Shown: positions 5,216-58,449 of the stretch, one piece after another
How positions within the stretch are numbered: the stretch's first letter is position 1
Layout: each line of letters opens with the position of its first letter
Assembly (NCBI GenBank): GCA_963754655.1
Contig: CAVWGN010000001.1
Coordinates: 2,784,001 to 2,848,000 of the forward strand
Length of the DNA: 64,000 nt
Reading direction: 5' to 3'
DNA from: an uncultured Chlamydiae bacterium
GTDB taxonomy: Bacteria > Chlamydiota > Chlamydiia > Chlamydiales > Parachlamydiaceae
The notes under the pieces: generated by a model
The model's database searches: none
What the model was told of the DNA's origin: nothing
Seen by the model: only the letters and a program-made list of their open reading frames with translations
Translations under genes and position numbers: made by a program

Positions 5216-5371
5216 CCTAGTACTCAACCACATTAGTTTTTGCCTATTGGGACTGCTTGAAAGCCCTGGGGTTGGGATGAGATGATTCTCTTGTAGTCCT
5301 TCAGACTAGATGACGAGGCCAATCTAACCCAGGACGATGTCCTGGGCTATTTTATTTGAAGCTTTCAGGCT
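5216..5371. repeat. Solo MITE-like end (CCTAGTACTCAACCACATTAG...) followed by one three-hairpin REP-like arm
   Basis: 5216-5276 matches 56221-56277. Hairpins AGTCCTTCAGACT, CCCAGGACGATGTCCTGGG and AAGCTTTCAGGCT lie at 5293-5371. Confidence 0.75.
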
Positions 5372-5408
5372 ATTAAACAAATCAAGCTATTGGGTTATTT
5401 AAGGAATA

Positions 5409-9605: not shown

Positions 9606-9782
9606 ACTTTTATAAGTAAATCCTATCATTAATATAAAACTATTCAAAAAAAGCTACGAAGAAAACAATAAAAGTCATTTTTGGTGAGCACTCAAAACAC
9701 TTAGGATCAATACAACACGGTTTGGATGTCATCTCAACTGTCTAAAATAAAATATGTGTAAGTCTTAGCTTTTTCTATCCCA

Positions 9783-10204
9783 CATTCCTAGACCAGGAGA
9801 ATAAGTTTTTTGAATTAGTTAAGGGCTGCTAAGGGCCCTGTCGTTAGGCCTGAAGGGCCGTCATGTTACAGCTCAGGTCGAAGCGAAGCGGAGGCCTGGG
9901 TAAAATAAAAAAAGAATCGAGTCCTGAAAGGACGGCATAAATTAATCCCACAAATATTCGGTGTTCTTTTTGAGAAGCAAGATATTTTTTCTCCTTCTAG
10001 AGCTAATGTAGAGATAGAAAATCCTCCATTCCCTTGCGAAGCGAAATCACTCCTTTGAGTATGCCGTCCTTTCAGGACTCGATTTTTTTTTATTTTACCC
10101 AGGCCTCGGCTTCGCTTCGACCTGGGCTATAACATGACGGCCCTTCAGGCCTAACGACAGAGCTCTTATCTAATTCAAAAACTTATCTTCCTGGTCTAGG
10201 AATG
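9783..10204. mobile_element. Non-autonomous palindromic element: CTAG-bounded outer inverted ends, inverted three-hairpin arms and an internal tnpA remnant
   Basis: CCTAGACCAGGA...TCCTGGTCTAGG outer ends. Arms ~9838-9939 and ~10060-10162 are reverse complements. The spacer encodes TnpA C-terminal motifs on the minus strand. Confidence 0.85.
9942..10045 (-). pseudogene. Degenerate, internally deleted IS200-class tnpA fragment
   Basis: Minus strand in shifting frames reads FASQGNGGFSIS, KYLASQKEH, EYLWD*, versus FGWQDGYGVFSVS, DYIKRQKEYH, KYLP* in the intact TnpA at 18159-18605. Confidence 0.7.
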
Positions 10205-10415
10205 GGATTCTATGCATGAAAACAACGCAGTTTATGGCGGCCTATATGAGAAGACAACAAATAGCCAATTATATCTTACAAATGGAAACAAAATAAACAG
10301 TTCATACCCATCTTCTAAATAAATGATAATCATTCATTAAATCTTACGCTCTATCTTGGGGCGTGTTTGCAAAATGCTAGTATCCTAAGATTATAAAGAA
10401 TGGTTTAGCATCAAC

Positions 10416-16025: not shown

Positions 16026-16128
16026 CAGAGAAAACTCTAGCACGCCATGAAATTCCCATATATGAATTTGTCATGGCAAATCATGCAATATCACGTCGTT
16101 TACTGGCCTATATTTGGCCCGCAAAATT
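16026..16128 (+). repeat. ~100-bp direct repeat, left of the hip module
   Basis: CAGAGAAA..CTAGCA.GCCATGA...TCATGGCAAATCATGCAA.ATCACGT...TACTGGCC.A.ATTTGGCCC.GCAAAATT matches 17865-17971. Confidence 0.8.
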
Positions 16129-16298: not shown

Positions 16299-16538
16299 AT
16301 GAATGCAAACAAAATAGGCAAAATGGTTCATTTTCATCGCAAAAAGAGTGGCTTATCTCAAGAAGAGCTCGCCAGGCTTGCTGGATTAGGTAAAACAGTC
16401 ATTTTTGATATTGAAAAAGGAAAACTTACCGTTCGTCTAGCGACTCTATTAAAGGTTTTAGAAGTATTGAATATTAAAATGGAATTTCAAAGCTCATTGA
16501 TGGGCCTATTTGAGGAACAACTAGATGAAAAGAGCTAA
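16299..16538 (+). CDS. hipB: HipB-like XRE HTH regulator
   Basis: RKKSGLSQEELARLAGLGKT.I..IEKG HTH; first gene of an overlapping three-gene operon. Confidence 0.85.
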   Translation: MNANKIGKMVHFHRKKSGLSQEELARLAGLGKTVIFDIEKGKLTVRLATLLKVLEVLNIKMEFQSSLMGLFEEQLDEKS

Positions 16539-16836
16539 GGTATTTGTTAATGGCACTCTGGCAGGTGAGCTTCAGGAAATTGAGCGAGGCAAAAAATATC
16601 TTTTTATCTATCTAGACACTTATGAGGGACCCTCTGTTTCTTTAGAAATGCCTCTATCAAAATCTGTCTATGAATTTGATCGTTTTCCTCCATTTTTCGA
16701 GGGTTTACTTCCAGAAGGAATCATGTTAGAAGGGCTTTTGCGGCAAACCAAAATAGATCGGCATGATTTAATGTCTCAAATTATTACAGTTGGAGAAGAT
16801 CTTGTTGGAAATGTTACAATAGAGGCCGCAGAATGA
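16525..16836 (+). CDS. hipS: HipA N-terminal domain protein (HipS-like antitoxin)
   Basis: A.VFVNG.LAG.L, VSL.MP, PPFFEGLLPEG, D.VGNV. Confidence 0.8.
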   Translation: MKRAKVFVNGTLAGELQEIERGKKYLFIYLDTYEGPSVSLEMPLSKSVYEFDRFPPFFEGLLPEGIMLEGLLRQTKIDRHDLMSQIITVGEDLVGNVTIEAAE

Positions 16837-17759
16837 ATCGCTGCCCCATTACATACGAATTATGTGGAAAGCAGAAATACTCAACTAAAGGGATTAAGCT
16901 ACTTTCTAAAAATTTAAAAAATCTAAAAAATTTTCCTTATACTTTCAAAGAACAGATACAATTAGCAACTCAGCTTGCAGCCAAATTATCAATTCAAGGG
17001 ATACAACCGAAATTAAGTATCAATTTGAACGTTACAAAGGAAGAGTTTGAAATTGTAGAAAGAGATGGCAAATTCATCTTAAAGCCCCCGCATCACATCT
17101 ATGACGAACTTCCACAAAATGAAGATCTCACTATGAAATTAGCTAAAATTGTAGGGATAGAAGTTCCTCTTCATGGTATGATTTATAACATTGATGATTC
17201 TTTAAGCTATTTTATTAAACGGTTCGATCGATTACCGAGAAATCAAAAAGTCGCAGTTGAGGACTTCTCCCAAATTTTAGGTTTTTCTCGAGAAACAAAG
17301 TACGAATCCAGTATGGAAAAAGTGATTTCTGTCATACAGAAACACTGCACATTTCCTGTTATAGAAAAGTTAAAATTATTCCGTCTTGCAATCTTTAATT
17401 TTCTTGTAGGAAATGAGGATATGCATTTGAAAAATTTTTCATTAATTAGGCGGGAGAACAAAGTAGAACTAAGCCCTGCTTATGATCTTTTAAATACAAC
17501 AATTGTTACCAACGCTCAAGAAGAAATTGCTCTTCCCATAAAAGGGAAAAAAAGAAACCTTAATCGAGCTGATTTTATCGCATATTTTGGAATTGAAAGA
17601 TTAGGTTTTACTGAAGCTGTACTAAAAGAAGAAATTTTAAAATTTGAGAAATCACTAGATTTCTGGCATCTTCTTATAGATCAAAGCTTTTTATCGCAAA
17701 AACTGCAGGCACGTTATCACGAATTAATAAAAGGGCGTTGGCAACGAATAAAGAAATAG
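16833..17759 (+). CDS. hipT: HipA-family kinase toxin (HipT-like)
   Basis: LSIQGIQPK P-loop, ILKP, NE.LTM.LA, RFDR, EDF.Q, GNEDMHLKNFS, LSPAYDL. Confidence 0.88.
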   Translation: MNRCPITYELCGKQKYSTKGIKLLSKNLKNLKNFPYTFKEQIQLATQLAAKLSIQGIQPKLSINLNVTKEEFEIVERDGKFILKPPHHIYDELPQNEDLTMKLAKIVGIEVPLHGMIYNIDDSLSYFIKRFDRLPRNQKVAVEDFSQILGFSRETKYESSMEKVISVIQKHCTFPVIEKLKLFRLAIFNFLVGNEDMHLKNFSLIRRENKVELSPAYDLLNTTIVTNAQEEIALPIKGKKRNLNRADFIAYFGIERLGFTEAVLKEEILKFEKSLDFWHLLIDQSFLSQKLQARYHELIKGRWQRIKK

Positions 17760-17864: not shown

Positions 17865-17971
17865 CAGAGAGAAATCTAGCATGCCATGATGACATTTCAG
17901 CATACGAATTTATCATGGCAAATCATGCAAAATCACGTGATGTACTGGCCCACATTTGGCCCCGCAAAATT
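17865..17971 (+). repeat. ~100-bp direct repeat, right of the hip module
   Basis: Matches 16026-16128. Confidence 0.8.
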
Positions 17972-18059
17972 ACTCGAAATAATTTTTATTTAATGGATAG
18001 TAGTCATGGGTGCAGGCATAGCTCAATATCATCAACTTAAAGACATTGGTTGATGCGAA

Positions 18060-18154
18060 GCGGCGCTAGCCGCGCCGGATAATAGACGTGGGTGGAGGCG
18101 CAGCCGAAACCCACGGTAAGCTTAGGAGAACCTTAAGCCACGTAGTGGCGCAGC
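18060..18154 (+). repeat. Three-hairpin REP-like arm abutting the tnpA stop codon
   Basis: GCGGCGCTAGCCGC, CGTGGGTGGAGGCGCAGCCGAAACCCACG, GCCACGTAGTGGC; same family as the arms at 19.8-21.9 kb and 56.5-58.1 kb. Confidence 0.85.
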
Positions 18155-18158
18155 TTTT

Positions 18159-18605
18159 TCAAGGCAAATATTTCTCCTCATACTGAATATTGTAATGGTT
18201 AAGAAAAAGAACGAATTCTTCCCGAAATGTGAATTTTTTATGATACTCTTTCTGACGTTTAATATAATCGATCACCTTCTCAACAGTAGAAGGACTAACG
18301 GAAAAGACACCATAGCCATCTTGCCATCCAAACAAATCTTGCTTTGAAAGATCCTTCATAAATAAAGAAGATTTAGCTTTAACCGCACGCATGAGACTTG
18401 AAATAGCAATATTGGGATGTAAACTGATCAAAAGATGAACGTGATCTTCAATTCCACCAATGCAAATTAATTTTCCATTCTCTTTTTTAATAACACCTCC
18501 AATATAGGCATATAGCCGGTCTCGAATTTCAGGTTTAATGAATGGCAATCGATTTTTTGTGGACCAAATCACGTGGAAAGTCAAGCAAGCAAATGTGTTA
18601 GCCAT
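18159..18605 (-). CDS. tnpA: IS200/IS605-class HUH (Y1) transposase TnpA, REP-associated candidate
   Basis: H.IWSTKNR, DHVHLL (HUH), WQDGYGVFSVS, YIKRQ (catalytic Tyr); no tnpB adjacent. Confidence 0.92.
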   Translation of the reverse strand: MANTFACLTFHVIWSTKNRLPFIKPEIRDRLYAYIGGVIKKENGKLICIGGIEDHVHLLISLHPNIAISSLMRAVKAKSSLFMKDLSKQDLFGWQDGYGVFSVSPSTVEKVIDYIKRQKEYHKKFTFREEFVLFLNHYNIQYEEKYLP

Positions 18606-18902
18606 AAATCCACCAATATTAAAAATAAATATTTATAGATTAGACTATTTTTATCCTTCTTATCAAGAGCTAATATCAGAACAAATCACCTTCTAGATAG
18701 GCTTTGCGTTAAACAAAATCTAGAAAGTCATTAGGAAAGCCTCGATCAAACTGATCAACGCTTATGTGTGATAGAGTAGCCGAGCTGATAACAAGAGCAA
18801 TAAACTTTCATTGATTCATTAATCATTAAATATTTCCACCTGAAAAGAGATAACATTTTATTGATTTTTGTTCGCAAATTTGCTAACAAAAATAAAGAGA
18901 AT

Positions 18903-19273
18903 ATGACTAAAACGAAAGTTGTATTTTACAAAGAGAAAGATGAAACGACAGCTCCAGTACTTGAATGGTTGGATACTATTCCTTTAAAGGCCCGCTTAAA
19001 ATGTCTGACAAGAATTGAAAGATTAAAGGAAGAAGGACATCAATTGCGTAGACCAGAGGCAGATTTCCTCAGAGATAAGATTTATGAATTGAGGGCAAGT
19101 TTACAAGGCATTCCTATAGAATTCTCTATTTTTTTCACGGCAATACGGCTGCTGTTTTGTCTCATAGAATTGTAAAAGAGGATTGTGTTCCTCCGATAGA
19201 GATTGACAAAGCAATACATCGCCGAAAAAATTTTGAGATGAATCCAAAAGCTCACACATATGAGGAGAAATAA
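18903..19273 (+). CDS. RelE/HigB (Gp49-like) toxin, 1-bp frameshift near 19113
   Basis: PV.EWLD...IYELR, then in the alternative frame YRILYFFHGNTAAVLSHRIVKE...EIDKAIHRR; stop 2 bp before the antitoxin start. Confidence 0.8.
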
Positions 19274-19274
19274 A

Positions 19275-19619
19275 ATGGCTAAACACAAAAATAAGCCAAC
19301 AGATGATGCAGTTGAAATTTTGCATCGCCGTCTCGTTGATGATGATCCAGAAAAAGTTGCTGAACTAGAGAAAATTCGCGCTGACAATGATGTAGCAAGA
19401 AAGATTTACGACTTGCGTACAAAAGCAGGACTTTCTCAGAGGGAACTTGCTAAATTAGTTGGAACTACAGCATCGGTTATTTGTAGATTAGAAGACGGTG
19501 ATTATGAAGGGCATTCATTGGCTATGCTTAATCGTATTGCTGCTGCACTCGATAAGCGAGTCGAAATTCGTTTTTTGCCTATTAAAGGAAAATCGCATTC
19601 AAAACATGCTCATAGGTAA
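19275..19619 (+). CDS. XRE HTH antitoxin (HigA-like)
   Basis: LRTKAGLSQRELAKLVGTTASVICRLEDG; downstream of the toxin. Confidence 0.85.
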   Translation: MAKHKNKPTDDAVEILHRRLVDDDPEKVAELEKIRADNDVARKIYDLRTKAGLSQRELAKLVGTTASVICRLEDGDYEGHSLAMLNRIAAALDKRVEIRFLPIKGKSHSKHAHR

Positions 19620-19852
19620 TAAATATAACTTATAAGGCACTCTGAGGTAGCTTATAAGGAAAACATTCGGAGTTATTCTCTAAGAGGGGTCAGGCTTGGC
19701 ATTCTAAATCCTAGCCTATGGCTAGGTAATCGGAATTTTTTATCTTTGTTTTTGCAATGTTGCTTAATCCATATCATTCCCTCAGCGACAAGCGGCGTTA
19801 GCCGCGCATGGATAGTAGCCGTGGGTGTAGGCGCAAGCCGAAACCCACGGCT

Positions 19853-21176
19853 AGTTGTGTCAAGTATTATGTGCAAATTGGTAAGAGATCTCATTAGGTT
19901 AAGCTATTTTTTCAACGCTCAGTTGTTCTTGTTTCTTTTGCTCTTTTAATAGATCCATATTTAAATATCTTTTATCTACCCATCCCTCATGAACCTCAAC
20001 TGCAATTGCTAATATCAATCTTAAGCAACTCTCTTCATTTGGAAAAATTCTAATAACGTGTGTTCTTCTCTTAATTTCTTCATTTACTCTCTCGAGTAAG
20101 TTCGAACTTTTTAAATGCTTATGATGTTGTTTTGGAAACTGGTAAAACGTTAATGTCTCAAAAATATTTTCCTCCACCCATGTACATAACTTTGGATACT
20201 TCATCATCCACTTCTCTAGCCACATATTCAAATCTGTTTTGGCTTCTTTAATATCCTTTCTATCATAGATCCATCGCAATTCTTGTAAGCAATCGTCGTT
20301 TGCTTTTCTTGGTAAATAATCAATTGCATTTCTTAAGAAATGAACATAACATCTTTGCCAAGGGATTTGATAAAATACTTCCATTATCGCTTTCCTAAGC
20401 CCTGCATGCTCATCACTAATAATCAACTCAACTCCTATTAATCCTCTTTCTTTCAATCTCAATAGAAAATCTTTCCAACTATTGTGAGATTCTCGATTTG
20501 CAATTTCCACTGCTAATACTTGCCTGTAACCTTCTCCATTCACACCTACTGCAATTAATATAGCCTGCGATTTTACTATCCCATTTTCTCTAACTTTCTC
20601 ATAACGAGCATCTACAATTAGATAAGGATAAACTTCTGTCAATTTTCTATTTGCAAACTGCTTTAAGTCCTCGTCCAAGCTCTTATTGATGTTGCTTATT
20701 GTCGTCGCTGAAAATTCATGTCCGCAAAGTTCTTCTGTGATTGCCTTCACTTTCCTGGTTGATACTCCTTGGACATACATTTCTGCTAGAGCTGATACTA
20801 ATGCTTTTTCCGATCTTTCATATCGTTCAAAAAGCTCGGTAGAAAACATTCCCTCTCTGTCTCTTGGTACTTTTAGCTCTATATTGCCTATTCGCGTCAC
20901 TAAGTGCCTTGTATAATAACCTGCTCTATAGCCTTTTCTTTCTTTGGATCTTTCACTCTTATTTGCTTCCAAAGTCTCGATCATTTCGGCTTCTAAAAAA
21001 TTTTCGAGAGCAGTTTTCATAAGAGACTTCATTAAATCAACATCTTGTTCAATAACTTCTTTAGATAATTTGTTTTTCTCAATAGAATACTTTTTGGTCA
21101 TGGTATACCTCTTTTTGTAGTTAATAAGAGATCATCTTACCATGACCTTTTTTTGCACATAATTTTTTACACAATC
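19853..21176 (-). mobile_element. IS256-family insertion sequence (1324 bp), copy 1
   Basis: Imperfect TIRs GATTGTGTAAAAAATTATGTGCAAA / AGTTGTGTCAAGTATTATGTGCAAA; 8-bp TSD CCACGGCT (19845-19852, 21177-21184). Confidence 0.95.
19899..21101 (-). CDS. IS256-family (mutator-type) DDE transposase
   Basis: VPRDREG.F, MYVQGVSTRKV, YLIVDA.YEKVR, ISDEHAGL, WQRCYVHF.RN, SSN.LER.N.EIKRRT. Confidence 0.95.
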   Translation of the reverse strand: MTKKYSIEKNKLSKEVIEQDVDLMKSLMKTALENFLEAEMIETLEANKSERSKERKGYRAGYYTRHLVTRIGNIELKVPRDREGMFSTELFERYERSEKALVSALAEMYVQGVSTRKVKAITEELCGHEFSATTISNINKSLDEDLKQFANRKLTEVYPYLIVDARYEKVRENGIVKSQAILIAVGVNGEGYRQVLAVEIANRESHNSWKDFLLRLKERGLIGVELIISDEHAGLRKAIMEVFYQIPWQRCYVHFLRNAIDYLPRKANDDCLQELRWIYDRKDIKEAKTDLNMWLEKWMMKYPKLCTWVEENIFETLTFYQFPKQHHKHLKSSNLLERVNEEIKRRTHVIRIFPNEESCLRLILAIAVEVHEGWVDKRYLNMDLLKEQKKQEQLSVEKIA

Positions 21177-22008
21177 CCACGGCTACCCTCAAAACAAATT
21201 TGAGCCACGTTAGTGGCGTAGCATTCGTTTAAATAAAAATTGCTCCACAATCACAATTTCCTACGCCACTAACGTGGCTTCATTTTTTTTACCATACACC
21301 GTGGGTTTCGGCTTGCGCCTACACCCACGGCTACTATCCATGCGCGGCTAACGCCGCTTGAGCGATAAATTCAGCTTCCGGGGATTTGCCACAAGCATTT
21401 CGTTCCTAGCCTATGGCTAGGCAATCGAAATTTTTTATCTTTGTTTTTGCAATGTTGCTTGATCCATATCATTTCCCTCAGCGACGAGCGGCGTTAGCCG
21501 CGCATGAATAGTAGCCGTGGGTGTAGGCGAAGCCGGAACCCACGGCTACTATCCATGCGCGGCTAACGCCGCTTGAGCGACAAATTTAGCTTCCGGGGAT
21601 TTGCCACAAGCATTTCGTTCCTAGCCTATGGCTAGGCAATCGAAATTTTTTATCTTTGTTTTTGCAATGTTGCTTGATCCATATCATTTCCCTCAGCGAC
21701 GAGCGGCGTTAGCCGCGCATGGATAGTAGCCGTGGGTGTAGGCGAAGCCGGAACCCACGGTGTATGGTAAAAAAATGAAGCCACGTTAGTGGCGTAGCAT
21801 TCGTTTAAAAAACATTGCTCCACAATCACATTTCCTACGCCACTAACGTGGCTTCATTTTTTTTACCATACACCGTGGGTTCCGGCTTTGCCTACACCCA
21901 CGGCTACTATCCATGCGCGGCTAACGCCGCTTGAGCGACAAATTTAGCTTCTGGAGTTTGCCAGGAGCTATTTTGTGACTAGCTTCGTGGATAGTCAGTC
22001 GGAATTTT

Positions 22009-22316
22009 TTATCTTTGTTTTGGTAATGTGGCTTGATCTACATAGGTTTTGAAGGCTTGCAGATCTAACATGTAGCGCCCGCCAATCTTCTTTACGCATT
22101 TCATTGCAATAGGATTGCGGTGTTTTAGAAGATTTAAAACTTTTCGCTGAGAGCTCTGAAAATAGACCGGTTTTTTGAGAAAACAAAAGAGCACATAATT
22201 ATTAGATGTGATGGGTGCTGTGAAGGAGAAGGTTTTTATAAGCGTTGTATTAAACCTTTTGAAGATATAGGAAAATATATTAAAGAACCGTGCGTTCTCT
22301 TTTGAATATATGTCAT
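22009..22316 (-). pseudogene. Degraded excisionase-like small DNA-binding protein
   Basis: GGAGG RBS and ATG at 22316; C-terminal CVKKIGGRYMLDLQAFKTYVD resembles the wing of island Xis-like proteins; frames are broken. Confidence 0.45.
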
Positions 22317-22446: not shown

Positions 22447-22496
22447 TTTAAAGAGAAGGTAACGAAGTCAAAGACCACCCTTCTAACGGTTTGGCA

Positions 22497-22580
22497 TGCT
22501 CGGAAAAGGACTCGAACCTTCACGGCCAAAAAGGCCAAGGGATTTTAAGTCCCTTGTGTCTACCATTCCACCATCCGAGC
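22497..22580 (-). tRNA. tRNA-Leu (anticodon TAA)
   Basis: Minus strand GCTCGGATGGTGGAATGGTAGACAC-AAGGGACTTAAAATCCCTT-long variable arm-GAAGGTTCGAGTCCTTT-TCCGAGCA. Confidence 0.95.
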
Positions 22581-22752
22581 AAAAATGTACTAAAAAATTA
22601 CCTCTTCTCTATTAAACAGTCAAGCGCTTTTTAAAACTTATTATCCATGCATCATTCCCATCTCCCTCTTTAGAGAGAGCATCAACCTTAAAAAGAAAAT
22701 TGACTAGGTCCCTTTCTACTCTTTTAATAGGATTTAAGCCAATTTTCTTTTC

Positions 22753-38929: not shown

Positions 38930-39250
38930 GTGTGATTAAATCTGGGAGTTTATATTTTTTAGCAGATCGATACGAAATAGTAGGGCGGCGGTAGCCGCTT
39001 TTCAGGGGGAAGCTCCGTATGAAGCGAGCTTGCGAGCGGAATGCGGGTGTAGGCAAGATAGTATTGAGCTGCGGAAGCAGCGTAAGATCACTTACACCAC
39101 TTCCGCGGTTGATATTTTATTGATGTCCACCCCGCGCATTCCGCTCGCAAGCTCGCTTCATACGGGGCTTCCCCCTGAAAAGCGGCTACCGCCGCCCTAC
39201 TATTTCGTATCGATCTGCTAAAAAATATAAACTCCCAGATTTAATCACAC
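38930..39250. repeat. ~320-bp palindromic REPIN/MITE-like element with ~118-bp near-perfect arms
   Basis: GTGTGATTAAATCTGGGAG...GGAATGCG and its reverse complement; internal hairpins GCGGCGGTAGCCGC and GCTGCGGAAGCAGC. Confidence 0.92.
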
Positions 39251-56288: not shown

Positions 56289-56437
56289 GGCCGGGACTTA
56301 ACAAAGAACTATTTTGGGCTTGATATTCATCGCGCCAATTTAACAACACGGCGCCTGTAATAGACTTTAGAGGCATATTTCCCGAAAATGGCGCGAAAAA
56401 CATCAAGCCCAAAACAGTTCTTTGTTAAGTCCCGGCC
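56289..56437. mobile_element. 149-bp MITE-like element with ~36-bp TIRs
   Basis: GGCCGGGACTTAACAAAGAACTATTTTGGGCTTGAT ... ATCAAGCCCAAAACAGTTCTTTGTTAAGTCCCGGCC. Confidence 0.8.
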
Positions 56438-56572
56438 ATAGGCTAGGAACGAAATGCTTCTAGCAAACTCCAGAAGCTAAATTTGTCGCTCAAGCGGCTT
56501 TAGCCGCGCATGGATAGTAGTCGTGGGTGTAGACGCAAGCCGAAACCCACGGTGTATGGTAAAAAAAATGAA

Positions 56573-57896
56573 GATTGTGTAAAAAATTATGTGCAAAAAA
56601 AGGTCATGGTAAGATGATCTCTTATTAACTACAAAAAGAGGTATACCATGACCAAAAAGTATTCTATTGAGAAAAACAAATTATCTAAAGAAGTTATTGA
56701 ACAAGATGTTGATTTAATGAAGTCTCTTATGAAAACTGCTCTCGAAAATTTTTTAGAAGCCGAAATGATCGAGACTTTGGAAGCAAATAAGAGTGAAAGA
56801 TCCAAAGAAAGAAAAGGCTATAGAGCAGGTTATTATACAAGGCACTTAGTGACGCGAATAGGCAATATAGAGCTAAAAGTACCAAGAGACAGAGAGGGAA
56901 TGTTTTCTACCGAGCTTTTTGAACGATATGAAAGATCGGAAAAAGCATTAGTATCAGCTCTAGCAGAAATGTATGTCCAAGGAGTATCAACCAGGAAAGT
57001 GAAGGCAATCACAGAAGAACTTTGCGGACATGAATTTTCAGCGACGACAATAAGCAACATCAATAAGAGCTTGGACGAGGACTTAAAGCAGTTTGCAAAT
57101 AGAAAATTGACAGAAGTTTATCCTTATCTAATTGTAGATGCTCGTTATGAGAAAGTTAGAGAAAATGGGATAGTAAAATCGCAGGCTATATTAATTGCAG
57201 TAGGTGTGAATGGAGAAGGTTACAGGCAAGTATTAGCAGTGGAAATTGCAAATCGAGAATCTCACAATAGTTGGAAAGATTTTCTATTGAGATTGAAAGA
57301 AAGAGGATTAATAGGAGTTGAGTTGATTATTAGTGATGAGCATGCAGGGCTTAGGAAAGCGATAATGGAAGTATTTTATCAAATCCCTTGGCAAAGATGT
57401 TATGTTCATTTCTTAAGAAATGCAATTGATTATTTACCAAGAAAAGCAAACGACGATTGCTTACAAGAATTGCGATGGATCTATGATAGAAAGGATATTA
57501 AAGAAGCCAAAACAGATTTGAATATGTGGCTAGAGAAGTGGATGATGAAGTATCCAAAGTTATGTACATGGGTGGAGGAAAATATTTTTGAGACATTAAC
57601 GTTTTACCAGTTTCCAAAACAACATCATAAGCATTTAAAAAGTTCGAACTTACTCGAGAGAGTAAATGAAGAAATTAAGAGAAGAACACACGTTATTAGA
57701 ATTTTTCCAAATGAAGAGAGTTGCTTAAGATTGATATTAGCAATTGCAGTTGAGGTTCATGAGGGATGGGTAGATAAAAGATATTTAAATATGGATCTAT
57801 TAAAAGAGCAAAAGAAACAAGAACAACTGAGCGTTGAAAAAATAGCTTAACCTAATGAGATCTCTTACCAATTTGCACATAATACTTGACACAACT
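56573..57896 (+). mobile_element. IS256-family insertion sequence (1324 bp), copy 2
   Basis: Same TIRs as copy 1; 8-bp TSD AAAATGAA (56565-56572, 57897-57904). Confidence 0.95.
56648..57850 (+). CDS. IS256-family transposase
   Basis: Translation identical to 19899-21101. Confidence 0.95.
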   Translation: MTKKYSIEKNKLSKEVIEQDVDLMKSLMKTALENFLEAEMIETLEANKSERSKERKGYRAGYYTRHLVTRIGNIELKVPRDREGMFSTELFERYERSEKALVSALAEMYVQGVSTRKVKAITEELCGHEFSATTISNINKSLDEDLKQFANRKLTEVYPYLIVDARYEKVRENGIVKSQAILIAVGVNGEGYRQVLAVEIANRESHNSWKDFLLRLKERGLIGVELIISDEHAGLRKAIMEVFYQIPWQRCYVHFLRNAIDYLPRKANDDCLQELRWIYDRKDIKEAKTDLNMWLEKWMMKYPKLCTWVEENIFETLTFYQFPKQHHKHLKSSNLLERVNEEIKRRTHVIRIFPNEESCLRLILAIAVEVHEGWVDKRYLNMDLLKEQKKQEQLSVEKIA

Positions 57897-58449
57897 AAAA
57901 TGAAGCCACGTTAGTGGCGTAGGAAATGTGATGGTGGAGCAATGTTTATTTAAACGAATGCTACGCCACTAACGGGGCTCAAATTTGTTTTGAGGGTAAC
58001 CGTGGGTTTCGGCTTGCGCCTACACCCACGGCTAATATCCATACGCGGCTAACACCGCTCGTCGCTGAGGGAAAGGATATGGATCAAGCAACATTGAAAA
58101 AACAAAGATAAAAATTCCGATTACCTAGCCATATGACGGGACTTAACAGAGAACTGTTTTGGGCTTGATGTTTTTCGCGTCATTTTCGGGAAATATGCCT
58201 CTAAAGTCTATTACAGGAGTGGTGTTGTTAAATTGATGCGACGAATATCAAGTCCAAAAATAGTTCTTTGTTGAAGCAGCCCCACTAGGCAAAAACTCAT
58301 GTGGTTGAGTACTAGGGCGCAGCGGCGCGGCGACTGAATCGTTGCTTTAAGCCTACGCTCATCTCTTAAATTAACGCATAAGGATTTAAAACCATCCCAA
58401 TAGGCCAAAACTAATGTGCCAGAGTACCAGCTATCACTGTTGAAAAGAA

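Follow-up and report, generated by a model that had tools for sequence, protein, structure and literature searches.

A stand-alone tnpA gene in a chlamydial genome adjoins a three-hairpin repeat that recurs across the chromosome in several sub-families of one layout, as an original prediction made from the sequence had proposed. We consider it probable that gene and repeats form a REPtron-like unit run by an IS200-side enzyme, consisting of a subclass 1.2 TnpA, its cognate single-stranded DNA (ssDNA) arm and gene-less doublets of such arms. The window referred to throughout is the whole 64-kb stretch of DNA that was analyzed. Its predicted chlamydial host is confirmed by a same-genus genome, G002, which belongs to the Parachlamydiaceae.

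A Three-Hairpin Arm Beside tnpA

The gene and the repeats next to it comprise the following features.

18159..18605, minus strand: tnpA, an intact Y1_Tnp ORF for a 148-aa Y1 HUH transposase, assigned to TnpA-Y1 subclass 1.2
18060..18149, plus strand: cognate three-hairpin arm, pointing to the tnpA 3′ end (covariance model, 39.8 bits, and folding)
18060-18073: H1, small hairpin of the tnpA arm
18082-18085: TAG-ending tetranucleotide of the tnpA arm, at the end of a 12-nt spacer after H1
18086-18116: H2, long hairpin of the tnpA arm, outermost pair mismatched
18137-18149: H3, small hairpin of the tnpA arm
17993..18022, plus strand: degenerate piece of a second arm, comprising the spacer, TAG and the beginning of H2, repeat family D6

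The predicted abutment of an intact tnpA and a three-hairpin arm was borne out. The arm lies 9 nt past the stop codon and, as ssDNA, folds into three hairpins (z = -2.85; 1/200 shuffles equally good). No arm was found upstream of the window tnpA, which is thus one-armed, on its 3′ side only. We designate the arm family of this gene T1 and the families of paralogous tnpA lineages T2-T5. The window holds these further arms, among which the 39-kb doublet was likened to T2 arms, and the 5.3-kb arm to T4, by eye.

19792..21217, plus strand: T1 arm split by IS256 (H1-TAG-H2 at 19792-19850, H3 at 21204-21217)
21255..21940: T1 cluster without MITE (repeat listing and covariance model)
21255-21367, minus strand: inverted T1 arm of the MITE-free cluster
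21487-21573: collapsed double-footed unit of the MITE-free cluster
21693-21803, plus strand, and 21829-21940, minus strand: head-to-head T1 pair of the MITE-free cluster
56484..58068: T1 head-to-head doublet split by a second IS256 copy (arms 56484-56553, plus strand, and 57955-58068, minus strand)
9777..10206: T3 doublet (arms 9837-9943, plus strand, and 10056-10161, minus strand), with an Rfam Acido-Lenti-1 match at 10098-10152
38930..39250: doublet with arms akin to those of paralog T2 (38975-39091, plus strand, and 39086-39205, minus strand), with an outer 116-nt inverted repeat
5293..5381, minus strand: single T4-like arm (weak model score; folding)

A covariance model built on 27 arms (the tnpA arm and 26 from other genomes) scored 27-57 bits for the arms at 19.8-21.9 kb and 56.5-58.1 kb, in agreement with the inverted T1 pairs predicted there. 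Sequence-divergent arms had been proposed at three further places; those at 9.85/10.1 kb (32 and 39 bits) and 39.0 kb (19 and 18 bits) were recovered, but the one at 5.3 kb was weak (9.4 bits, E 0.33). Folded as ssDNA, the 21.7-kb arm gave z = -4.24 (0/200 shuffles as good) and the 5.3-kb arm z = -2.54. The divergent sub-families do share the predicted layout, but they match arms beside other paralogous tnpA genes elsewhere. A genome-wide BLASTN search returned 81 T1 hits, so the arms are not confined to the window, and the 77%-identical tnpA orthologue in G002 also carries an arm. Absent from the prediction were the IS256 elements that split both T1 pairs, the flanking MITE at 56-58 kb and the one-armed state of the gene.

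An IS200-Side Enzyme of Subclass 1.2

The enzyme had been thought to be a RAYT. We rejected this membership: the window TnpA scored 22.9 bits with the NCBIfam RAYT model NF047646 (cut-off 80), compared to 73.3 bits with the IS200 model NF033573, above its cut-off of 55. Six further homologues behaved in the same way with the RAYT profile (≤32.9 bits), and the class 2 (RAYT/TnpA-REP) motif Y-x-x-x-NP is absent from the alignment. In profile and fold searches of the PDB, ISDra2 and IS608 TnpA ranked first; the E. coli RAYT 4ER8 was missed by the sequence-profile search and ranked 30 by fold.

The alignment places the HuH motif at residues 55-57, W94-Q95 and the catalytic tyrosine at Y114. Its 148 aa, DH[IV]H, WQ, short core and C-terminal tail of ~30 aa give the protein the signature of subclass 1.2, an assignment made from length and motifs by alignment rather than with the HMM of the published authors. 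In the Y motif of the subclass, Y-x-x-x-Q-x-x-HH, residues Y114, Q118 and H122 are invariant across 22 aligned rows, and W94 and Q95 are likewise invariant in the alignment. In the window TnpA, Y replaces the first H of the HH pair; the orthologue and paralogs retain both. The low copy number and low within-genome identity typical of the subclass were found here too. Judged by its sequence, the window enzyme is a subclass 1.2 TnpA-Y1 of the IS200 side and no RAYT.

An ordinary IS200 copy was rejected as well, as dispersed near-identical gene copies are lacking. Nor did we find the layout of subclass 1.1 insertion sequences (ISs), in which left and right hairpins on one strand flank the gene, near-identical copies are dispersed and tnpB is often present. 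The window tnpA is under purifying selection, given a dN/dS of 0.16 versus the G002 orthologue; the neighboring hipA-like gene gave 0.11 in the same comparison. The branch of the window gene is longer than that of the G002 orthologue (0.36 versus 0.08). A homodimer model of TnpA scored 0.75 (best of three controls, 0.00), with pLDDT of at least 88 and agreement between runs in at least 96% of contacts; the score mark was reached by 20/30 solved pairs and 1/23 single chains. Because dimers of like proteins have already been solved, this model conveys likeness only.

Arms at Homologous Loci

We assembled 188 homologous loci (29 from chlamydial relatives or the genome itself, 79 from genome contigs and 80 from metagenome contigs), of which 31 were excluded for short flanks. 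Among the 157 scored loci, 116 (74%) carry an arm pointing at the gene, 62 have arms on both sides and 41 have no detected arm; the detector made no calls in 942 shuffles or 252 distant windows. An earlier, stricter detector found arms at 49/73 loci (5/438 shuffles, 1/126 distant windows, 13/146 in wrong orientation). The metagenome subset, obtained after the arm layout had been defined, has an arm at 45/59 loci. Arm-bearing loci span Chlamydiota, Planctomycetota, Verrucomicrobiota, Acidobacteriota and Bacteroidota. A window-only or chlamydia-only repeat was rejected, the arms being genome-wide and also beside homologues of other phyla, and the system is not special to chlamydiae.

In an alignment of 27 arms, 96% of stem cells are paired and 15/18 pairs show two-sided changes, compared to at most 50% paired in slid-alignment controls; these figures are biased in favor of the structure, which was read from the same 27 sequences (the window arm and 26 chosen for a 20-nt H2).

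The gene is patchy, occurring in 25 of 60 relatives. Arms found by the covariance model track it, being present in 23/25 genomes with the gene versus 7/35 without, six of those seven being <90% complete. Among genomes at least 90% complete the counts are 18/19 versus 1/23, although kinship among the genomes makes all such counts overstate the co-occurrence. Of G001, G002 and G003, G002 alone yielded T1-type doublets; it has the orthologue. The sole near-complete genome with the gene but no arms, G035, has two divergent homologues (36%) with no arm detected (L027).

Five Paralog Lineages, Each With Its Own Arm Type

Subclass 1.2 is represented in the genome by five divergent lineages, with six full genes and one partial gene between them. 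Proteins of the remaining five full genes share 41-45% identity with that of the window, and the paralogs are scattered over different parts of a quick tree in which 41 of 108 inner branches are open. Each lineage adjoins a distinct arm type. Arm queries returned 81 (T1), 6 (T2), 74 (T2-related), 344 (T3), 57 (T4), 156 (T4-like) and 174 (T5) blast hits, together 69 kb or 2.2% of the chromosome, figures that count hits rather than loci and come from families that can overlap. About 98% of the arm territory lies outside ORFs of at least 100 aa. Multi-copy, non-coding, inverted doublets of a repeat that flanks a Y1 gene are thus present, as in REPINs. The single fixed locus and vertical inheritance of RAYTs were not seen: the gene is patchy, its neighbors other than the hip genes differ in G002 and the paralogs are scattered. 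At one locus (L145; G000 C1, 2541000-2549000) three close T4 copies, one of them truncated, lie within 6 kb, and downstream arms are partly lost.

Gene and both arms might instead be an autonomous two-ended transposon, like a TIRtron, that is still hopping, with the gene-less doublets as its MITEs. The doublet at 9.8-10.2 kb invites this reading: it aligns to both T3 gene flanks and retains 92 nt of tnpA coding DNA, and so is an internal-deletion derivative of a T3 gene-plus-arms unit. The separate tree positions of the paralogs, the patchy gene in a variable region and the trio of T4 copies would fit as well. Such an element, however, should not lack dispersed identical gene copies, and here the other paralogs reach the 41-45% identity given above versus 8-14 near-identical copies for each of the true ISs in this genome. 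Viral contigs yielded a single fragment (one partial match among 19 candidate stretches), and tail-to-tail doublets, which gene deletion cannot yield, dominate family T3. We regard a still-hopping transposon as improbable, and it can be partly true alongside the REPtron-like unit that we prefer.

An Orphan "Small RNA" Family

The arms overlap with an Rfam family, Acido-Lenti-1 (RF01687), whose motif, according to the alignments, reads H1-spacer-TAG-H2 on the opposite strand. In the window, the gathering score is reached by the T3 arm at 10098-10152 (38 versus 37 bits). RF01687 also matched 148 of 150 scored candidates in this genome; cmscan matched 5 of 20 homologous loci scanned (of 80). RF01687 occurs in 19/25 relatives with the gene and 6/35 without. 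The T1 arm beside the window tnpA falls below the gathering score. The family differs from the arm in having no H3 and, at its gathering score, misses long-H2 arms such as T1. The three-hairpin system probably explains this orphan "small RNA" family. The available text of Weinberg et al. (2010; PMC2864571) classes Acido-Lenti-1 as a probable RNA of unknown function, and the family is still without a function in what is accessible of two 2026 preprints (10.64898/2026.10.21.760802; 10.64898/2026.02.09.704811). Our literature search, which covered only a minority of subscription journals, gave no publication in which such arms are connected with subclass 1.2 or Acido-Lenti-1.

Taking the Rfam entry at face value, the arms would be RNA elements (the Acido-Lenti-1 sRNA, terminators or mRNA stabilisers) with DDE transposons and MITEs as their sole means of spread and TnpA a bystander. 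Rfam does list the motif as an sRNA, many loops read as UNCG tetraloops on the Rfam strand, and in this genome MITEs carry most of the T1 and T3 copies (see below). The loops themselves speak otherwise. C-GNA-G is the prevailing loop of both H1 and H3 (36/75 and 32/75 arms). In 30 of these 68 a base other than C is adjacent, so that the loop fails as an RNA C(UNCG)G yet remains a DNA GNA mini-hairpin. Under the stability rules for DNA GNA mini-hairpins and RNA UNCG loops, the loops therefore fit the DNA form better, 30/68 lacking the base needed for RNA. The fixed orientation towards tnpA, the tight gene co-occurrence and the existence of MITE-free doublets are also at odds with a bystander TnpA. 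RNA elements are thus a very improbable explanation, far behind the ssDNA arms of a REPtron-like unit.

Hitch-Hiking and Insertion Sequences

Several mobile elements are layered onto the T1 arms of the window.

56293..56433: palindromic ~142-bp MITE M, which forms the left side of an M-T1-M composite and whose insertion site is the H2 foot of an arm from another family
58138..58276: the MITE M copy on the right, with a degraded outer end and an approximate end coordinate
19853..21176, minus strand: IS256-family element at the end of H2, with a 400-aa Mutator transposase (19899-21101) and an 8-bp target repeat
56573..57896, plus strand: another IS256 copy (100% identity with the one above; 8-bp target repeat)

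The genome contains 72 complete copies of MITE M. In our hand count, 23 of 30 T1 loci have M on both sides, four on one side and three on neither, and two of the three M-less loci are the arm and cluster adjoining tnpA. At the 20 T1 loci with both outer ends intact, again counted by hand, the outer 7-mers are equal (9) or one mismatch apart in 17, a match that is partly expected since many M targets share the consensus CCCWGGG; rarer targets also match on both sides. The targets of M-T1-M are the H2 stems of other arm families. T1 copy number in this genome thus largely reflects hitch-hiking in a MITE sandwich with 7-bp target repeats, and the terminal and target repeats point to mobilization of the DDE type. 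For this reason it is no evidence of activity by the window TnpA.

T3 doublets are likewise mostly nested in MITE shells. That duplication depends on the cognate Y1 enzyme, as in REPINs, is favored by the co-occurrence of gene and arms, but not by these MITE-borne T1 and T3 copies. In G002, four of the five T1 doublets read sit within a different terminal-repeat pair, and the fifth is near tnpA. MITE-free doublets in G007 and G022 combine conserved hairpins with variable spacers, occur in both orientations and often have no visible target repeat; they were read by eye in 40 hand-picked regions, several of which (in G007, G020 and G023) are nested too. These shell-less doublets argue against generalizing MITE hitch-hiking beyond this genome.

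Among the 72 paired ends of MITE M, no long element with M's ends was found as an autonomous partner. A candidate mobiliser of the MITE shells is a 1.86-kb IS present in 11 copies (L140:174-1870, G000 C1), with 102-aa and 419/439-aa ORFs, which makes a 7-bp repeat at CCCWGGG-type sites, the same target type; its 419-aa protein has no family in Pfam or NCBIfam.

Both T1 inverted pairs of the window are split by the identical 1324-bp IS256 copies. Genome-wide, all eight IS256 copies are flanked by arm or doublet-spacer sequence, seven with 8-9-bp repeats, and they sit at differing positions in three arm families. IS ends lie ≤60 nt from an arm in 13/16 cases for IS256, 8/10 and 4/6 for elements that we take to be IS481-like, 16/25 for a presumably IS427-like element, 12/31 for the 419-aa IS and 5/11 for a 375-aa IS5/IS1182-like element. 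The proportion is low for what we assume to be another IS5-like element (2/50) and a tnpB element (1/25), with 21% of non-coding DNA available. Insertions of the 375-aa element (L141, 11 copies) fall at the H3 loop in T3 arms, and those of the IS481-like elements within the H1-TAG spacer. In the one soil metagenome run searched, contigs were short and of low depth and gave neither joints across elements nor an empty site.

A Possible Cut Site Between Paired Hairpins

H1 and H3 are two copies of one motif, with a shared loop type and shared 5′ A-G and 3′ G-N-C-A-G flanks, and they covary within an arm. In G015 (L162:1-520), about seven hairpin-TAG-H2-spacer units of 69 nt form a tandem array before a tnpA start, in which one hairpin doubles as H1 and H3. 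About 16 arms (18 detector calls, two doubtful) have no H2 and keep H1, the spacer, TAG and, 22-29 nt on, H3 (L083, L088, L090, L098, L102, L111, L112, L118, L119, L238 and L242). Those placed in the tree form one Bacteroidota-rich clade (SH-aLRT 96), in which H2 is dispensable. TAG had been read as a hairpin foot, which these arms show it need not be; its retention without the middle hairpin favors a junction cut site over a REP-type guide foot.

The spacing of the arm points the same way. The spacing on the H1 side is 12-13 nt in 165/178 cases, and that on the H3 side is mostly 21-24 nt (119/160); as the detector windows were bounded at 11-14 and 17-28 nt, the agreement with IS608 spacings amounts to a maximum within limits set in advance. 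The consulted portion of He et al. (2011; PMC3201880) describes IS608 TnpA as a dimer with two hairpin sites. It cleaves at a distance of 10 nt on the 3′ side of the right hairpin and of 19 nt on the 5′ side of the left one, and forms a right-end/left-end (RE-LE) junction. The likeness of the arm to this junction favors TAG as the cut site of TnpA, a role that we rate as plausible, if slightly short of an even call.

TAG also stands at the H2 foot in most arms, where the tetranucleotide is GTAG in 52/75, and H2 starts with CC and ends with GG in 101/110, as expected of a RAYT-type foot. RAYT genes are flanked by inverted GT[AG]G-footed hairpins; here the unit has three hairpins, the window gene is one-armed and the footed hairpin is missing from some arms. 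Accordingly, we weighed RAYT-like chemistry by an IS200-side enzyme, in which TAG-H2 would be a true REP, TAG a guide selecting CT cuts, for instance in the adjacent inverted arm, and H1 and H3 accessory. The foot ends in AG, the bases selecting CT in group-3 RAYTs as far as the sources at hand describe them, and the invariant W94/Q95 are implicated in GTAG contact in E. coli TnpA-REP in the available text of PMC6006769. The inverted arm-gene-arm layout and dimers of both orientations also mirror REPtrons and REPINs. A true REP is nevertheless difficult to reconcile with the H2-less arms, and H1 and H3, accessory under this chemistry, are conserved and covary as much as H2. By eye, H101 and R104 of the E. 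coli enzyme have no counterpart in the alignment. We therefore regard RAYT-like chemistry as unlikely and prefer a cut at TAG within a fixed junction.

A mutual-information scan of 110 arms for an IS608-type guide returned only stem pairs and the H1-H3 similarity, the near-invariance of TAG leaving such a scan without power, and no H1 or H3 flank fits the IS608 pairing rule well. Partial copies of families T1-T5 gave no decisive breakpoint exactly at TAG, as MITE and IS layers obscure the ends.

In the mechanism that we propose, a TnpA dimer with two hairpin sites would engage H1 and H3 while the DNA is single-stranded, probably at replication forks. The arm would be a frozen IS608-type RE-LE junction, in the order hairpin, 12-13 nt, TAG, optional H2, ~22 nt, hairpin. 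TnpA would nick after TAG and exchange strands between arms, which may yield doublets, tandem units and occasional moves. The arms are inverted around the gene, a layout that one-strand peel-and-paste cannot excise.

Left and right flanks are mirror images of each other, over variable lengths of up to at least 167 nt, in T3 doublets of G000 C1 and in L122, L128 and L130, and they include copy-specific variants. Such flanks fit strand exchange between inverted arms; they also fit plain template switching at palindromes. Doublets in G007 (L120-L132) end at a conserved 5-7-nt motif ~15 nt outside H1, with variable bases between; this motif is a candidate cut or target motif.

A Possible Island at the tnpA Locus

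Two further features define the surroundings of the gene.

16299..17759, plus strand: HTH antitoxin with a HipA split into N-terminal and C-terminal domains; these genes also adjoin the tnpA orthologue of G002
22496..22581, minus strand: tRNA-Leu, near the end of the variable region

The hip module is bracketed by a 74-nt direct repeat (16047-16120 and 17889-17962, 82%) and has its orientation to tnpA reversed in G002. A second toxin-antitoxin-like pair, made up of a Gp49/DUF891 (HigB-like) ORF and an HTH ORF (18861-19619), lies between tnpA and the repeat cluster. A short ORF at 22009-22194 (minus strand) is conserved beside the native T1 doublet in G002 and is excisionase-like by position only. 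In G002, hipA again lies beside tnpA, an ORF that we take to be integrase-like is near, and the other neighbors differ. The position by a tRNA-Leu, the hip and toxin-antitoxin genes and the partial conservation in G002 suggest an island rather than a fixed domesticated locus. T1 may have arrived with the gene, probably on this tRNA-Leu island, and formed the local cluster; it would then have spread mainly as cargo of a DDE-type MITE pair targeting the H2 stems of other families.

Relation to Known Systems

In Table 1 of Quentin et al. (2018; PMC6006769), subclass 1.2 is entered as REP = "no", a descriptive entry and no sequence criterion, and the accessible text describes its genes as generally without terminal structures and mostly from Cyanobacteria and Bacteroidetes. 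The proteins studied here agree with that account, as far as it was available, in length, HuH, WQ and Y motifs, C-terminal tail, low copy number and low within-genome identity, and differ in that 74% of loci, in five phyla, carry a conserved three-hairpin arm. The arms at 116/157 loci correct the description of the subclass, not its membership.

With REPtron/REPIN-RAYT systems, as covered in the consulted parts of 10.1101/2021.07.10.451892 and PMC8266576, the present system shares a Y1 gene with inverted hairpin repeats, dispersed non-coding doublets, one repeat type per paralog, (G)TAG beside a hairpin and repeats that serve as IS landing sites. It differs in its enzyme, which is class 1 rather than class 2, and in its unit, which is ~90-130 nt with three hairpins compared to one hairpin of 20-40 nt. 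Here TAG persists without its hairpin, and the gene is patchy and in a variable region, whereas theirs is a fixed, vertically inherited site.

IS608 and ISDra2 are the closest solved structures, and within the available text of PMC3201880 they share a dimer like that modeled here and two small hairpins at RE-LE-like distances. Unlike in those elements, both hairpins are fused in one arm, the arms are inverted around the gene, and we found no tnpB, no identical dispersed copies and no guide. TIRtrons/TIRYTs (Di Nocera et al., 2013; PMC3733652, as accessible) also have Y1 genes bracketed by long inverted repeats, and gene-less families; they are class 2, all 26 TIRYTs being so placed in the available text of PMC6006769, and single repeat families of PMC3733652 may overlap with the arms described here. 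Finally, IS families including IS256 that prefer REP sites are described in the accessible part of Tobes and Pareja (2006; PMC1525189); here MITE pairs also carry one repeat family into others.

Implications

REPIN-RAYT systems have been said, in the literature available to us, to have evolved "possibly only once." Such a system in the IS200 part of the tree would represent either a second origin or the missing step from IS ends to REPINs. We tentatively raise, while leaning against it, the fuller proposal of a second independent REPIN-like origin from the IS200 branch. The arm would be a fixed RE-LE junction with one dimer on both small hairpins, a cut at TAG and H2 a variable passenger at the cut site, and Acido-Lenti-1 would be the DNA substrate of a 148-aa cut-and-join enzyme with many orthogonal enzyme-arm pairs. 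If true, strand exchange between inverted arms would account for both-orientation doublets and variable mirror-image flanks. One genome here offers five natural enzyme-arm pairs for the study of specificity. It also illustrates that repeat copy number can reflect MITE hitch-hiking instead of the adjacent enzyme. As the arms make up the 2.2% of the chromosome covered by the arm-query hits and draw several IS families, they shape the landing sites of mobile DNA.
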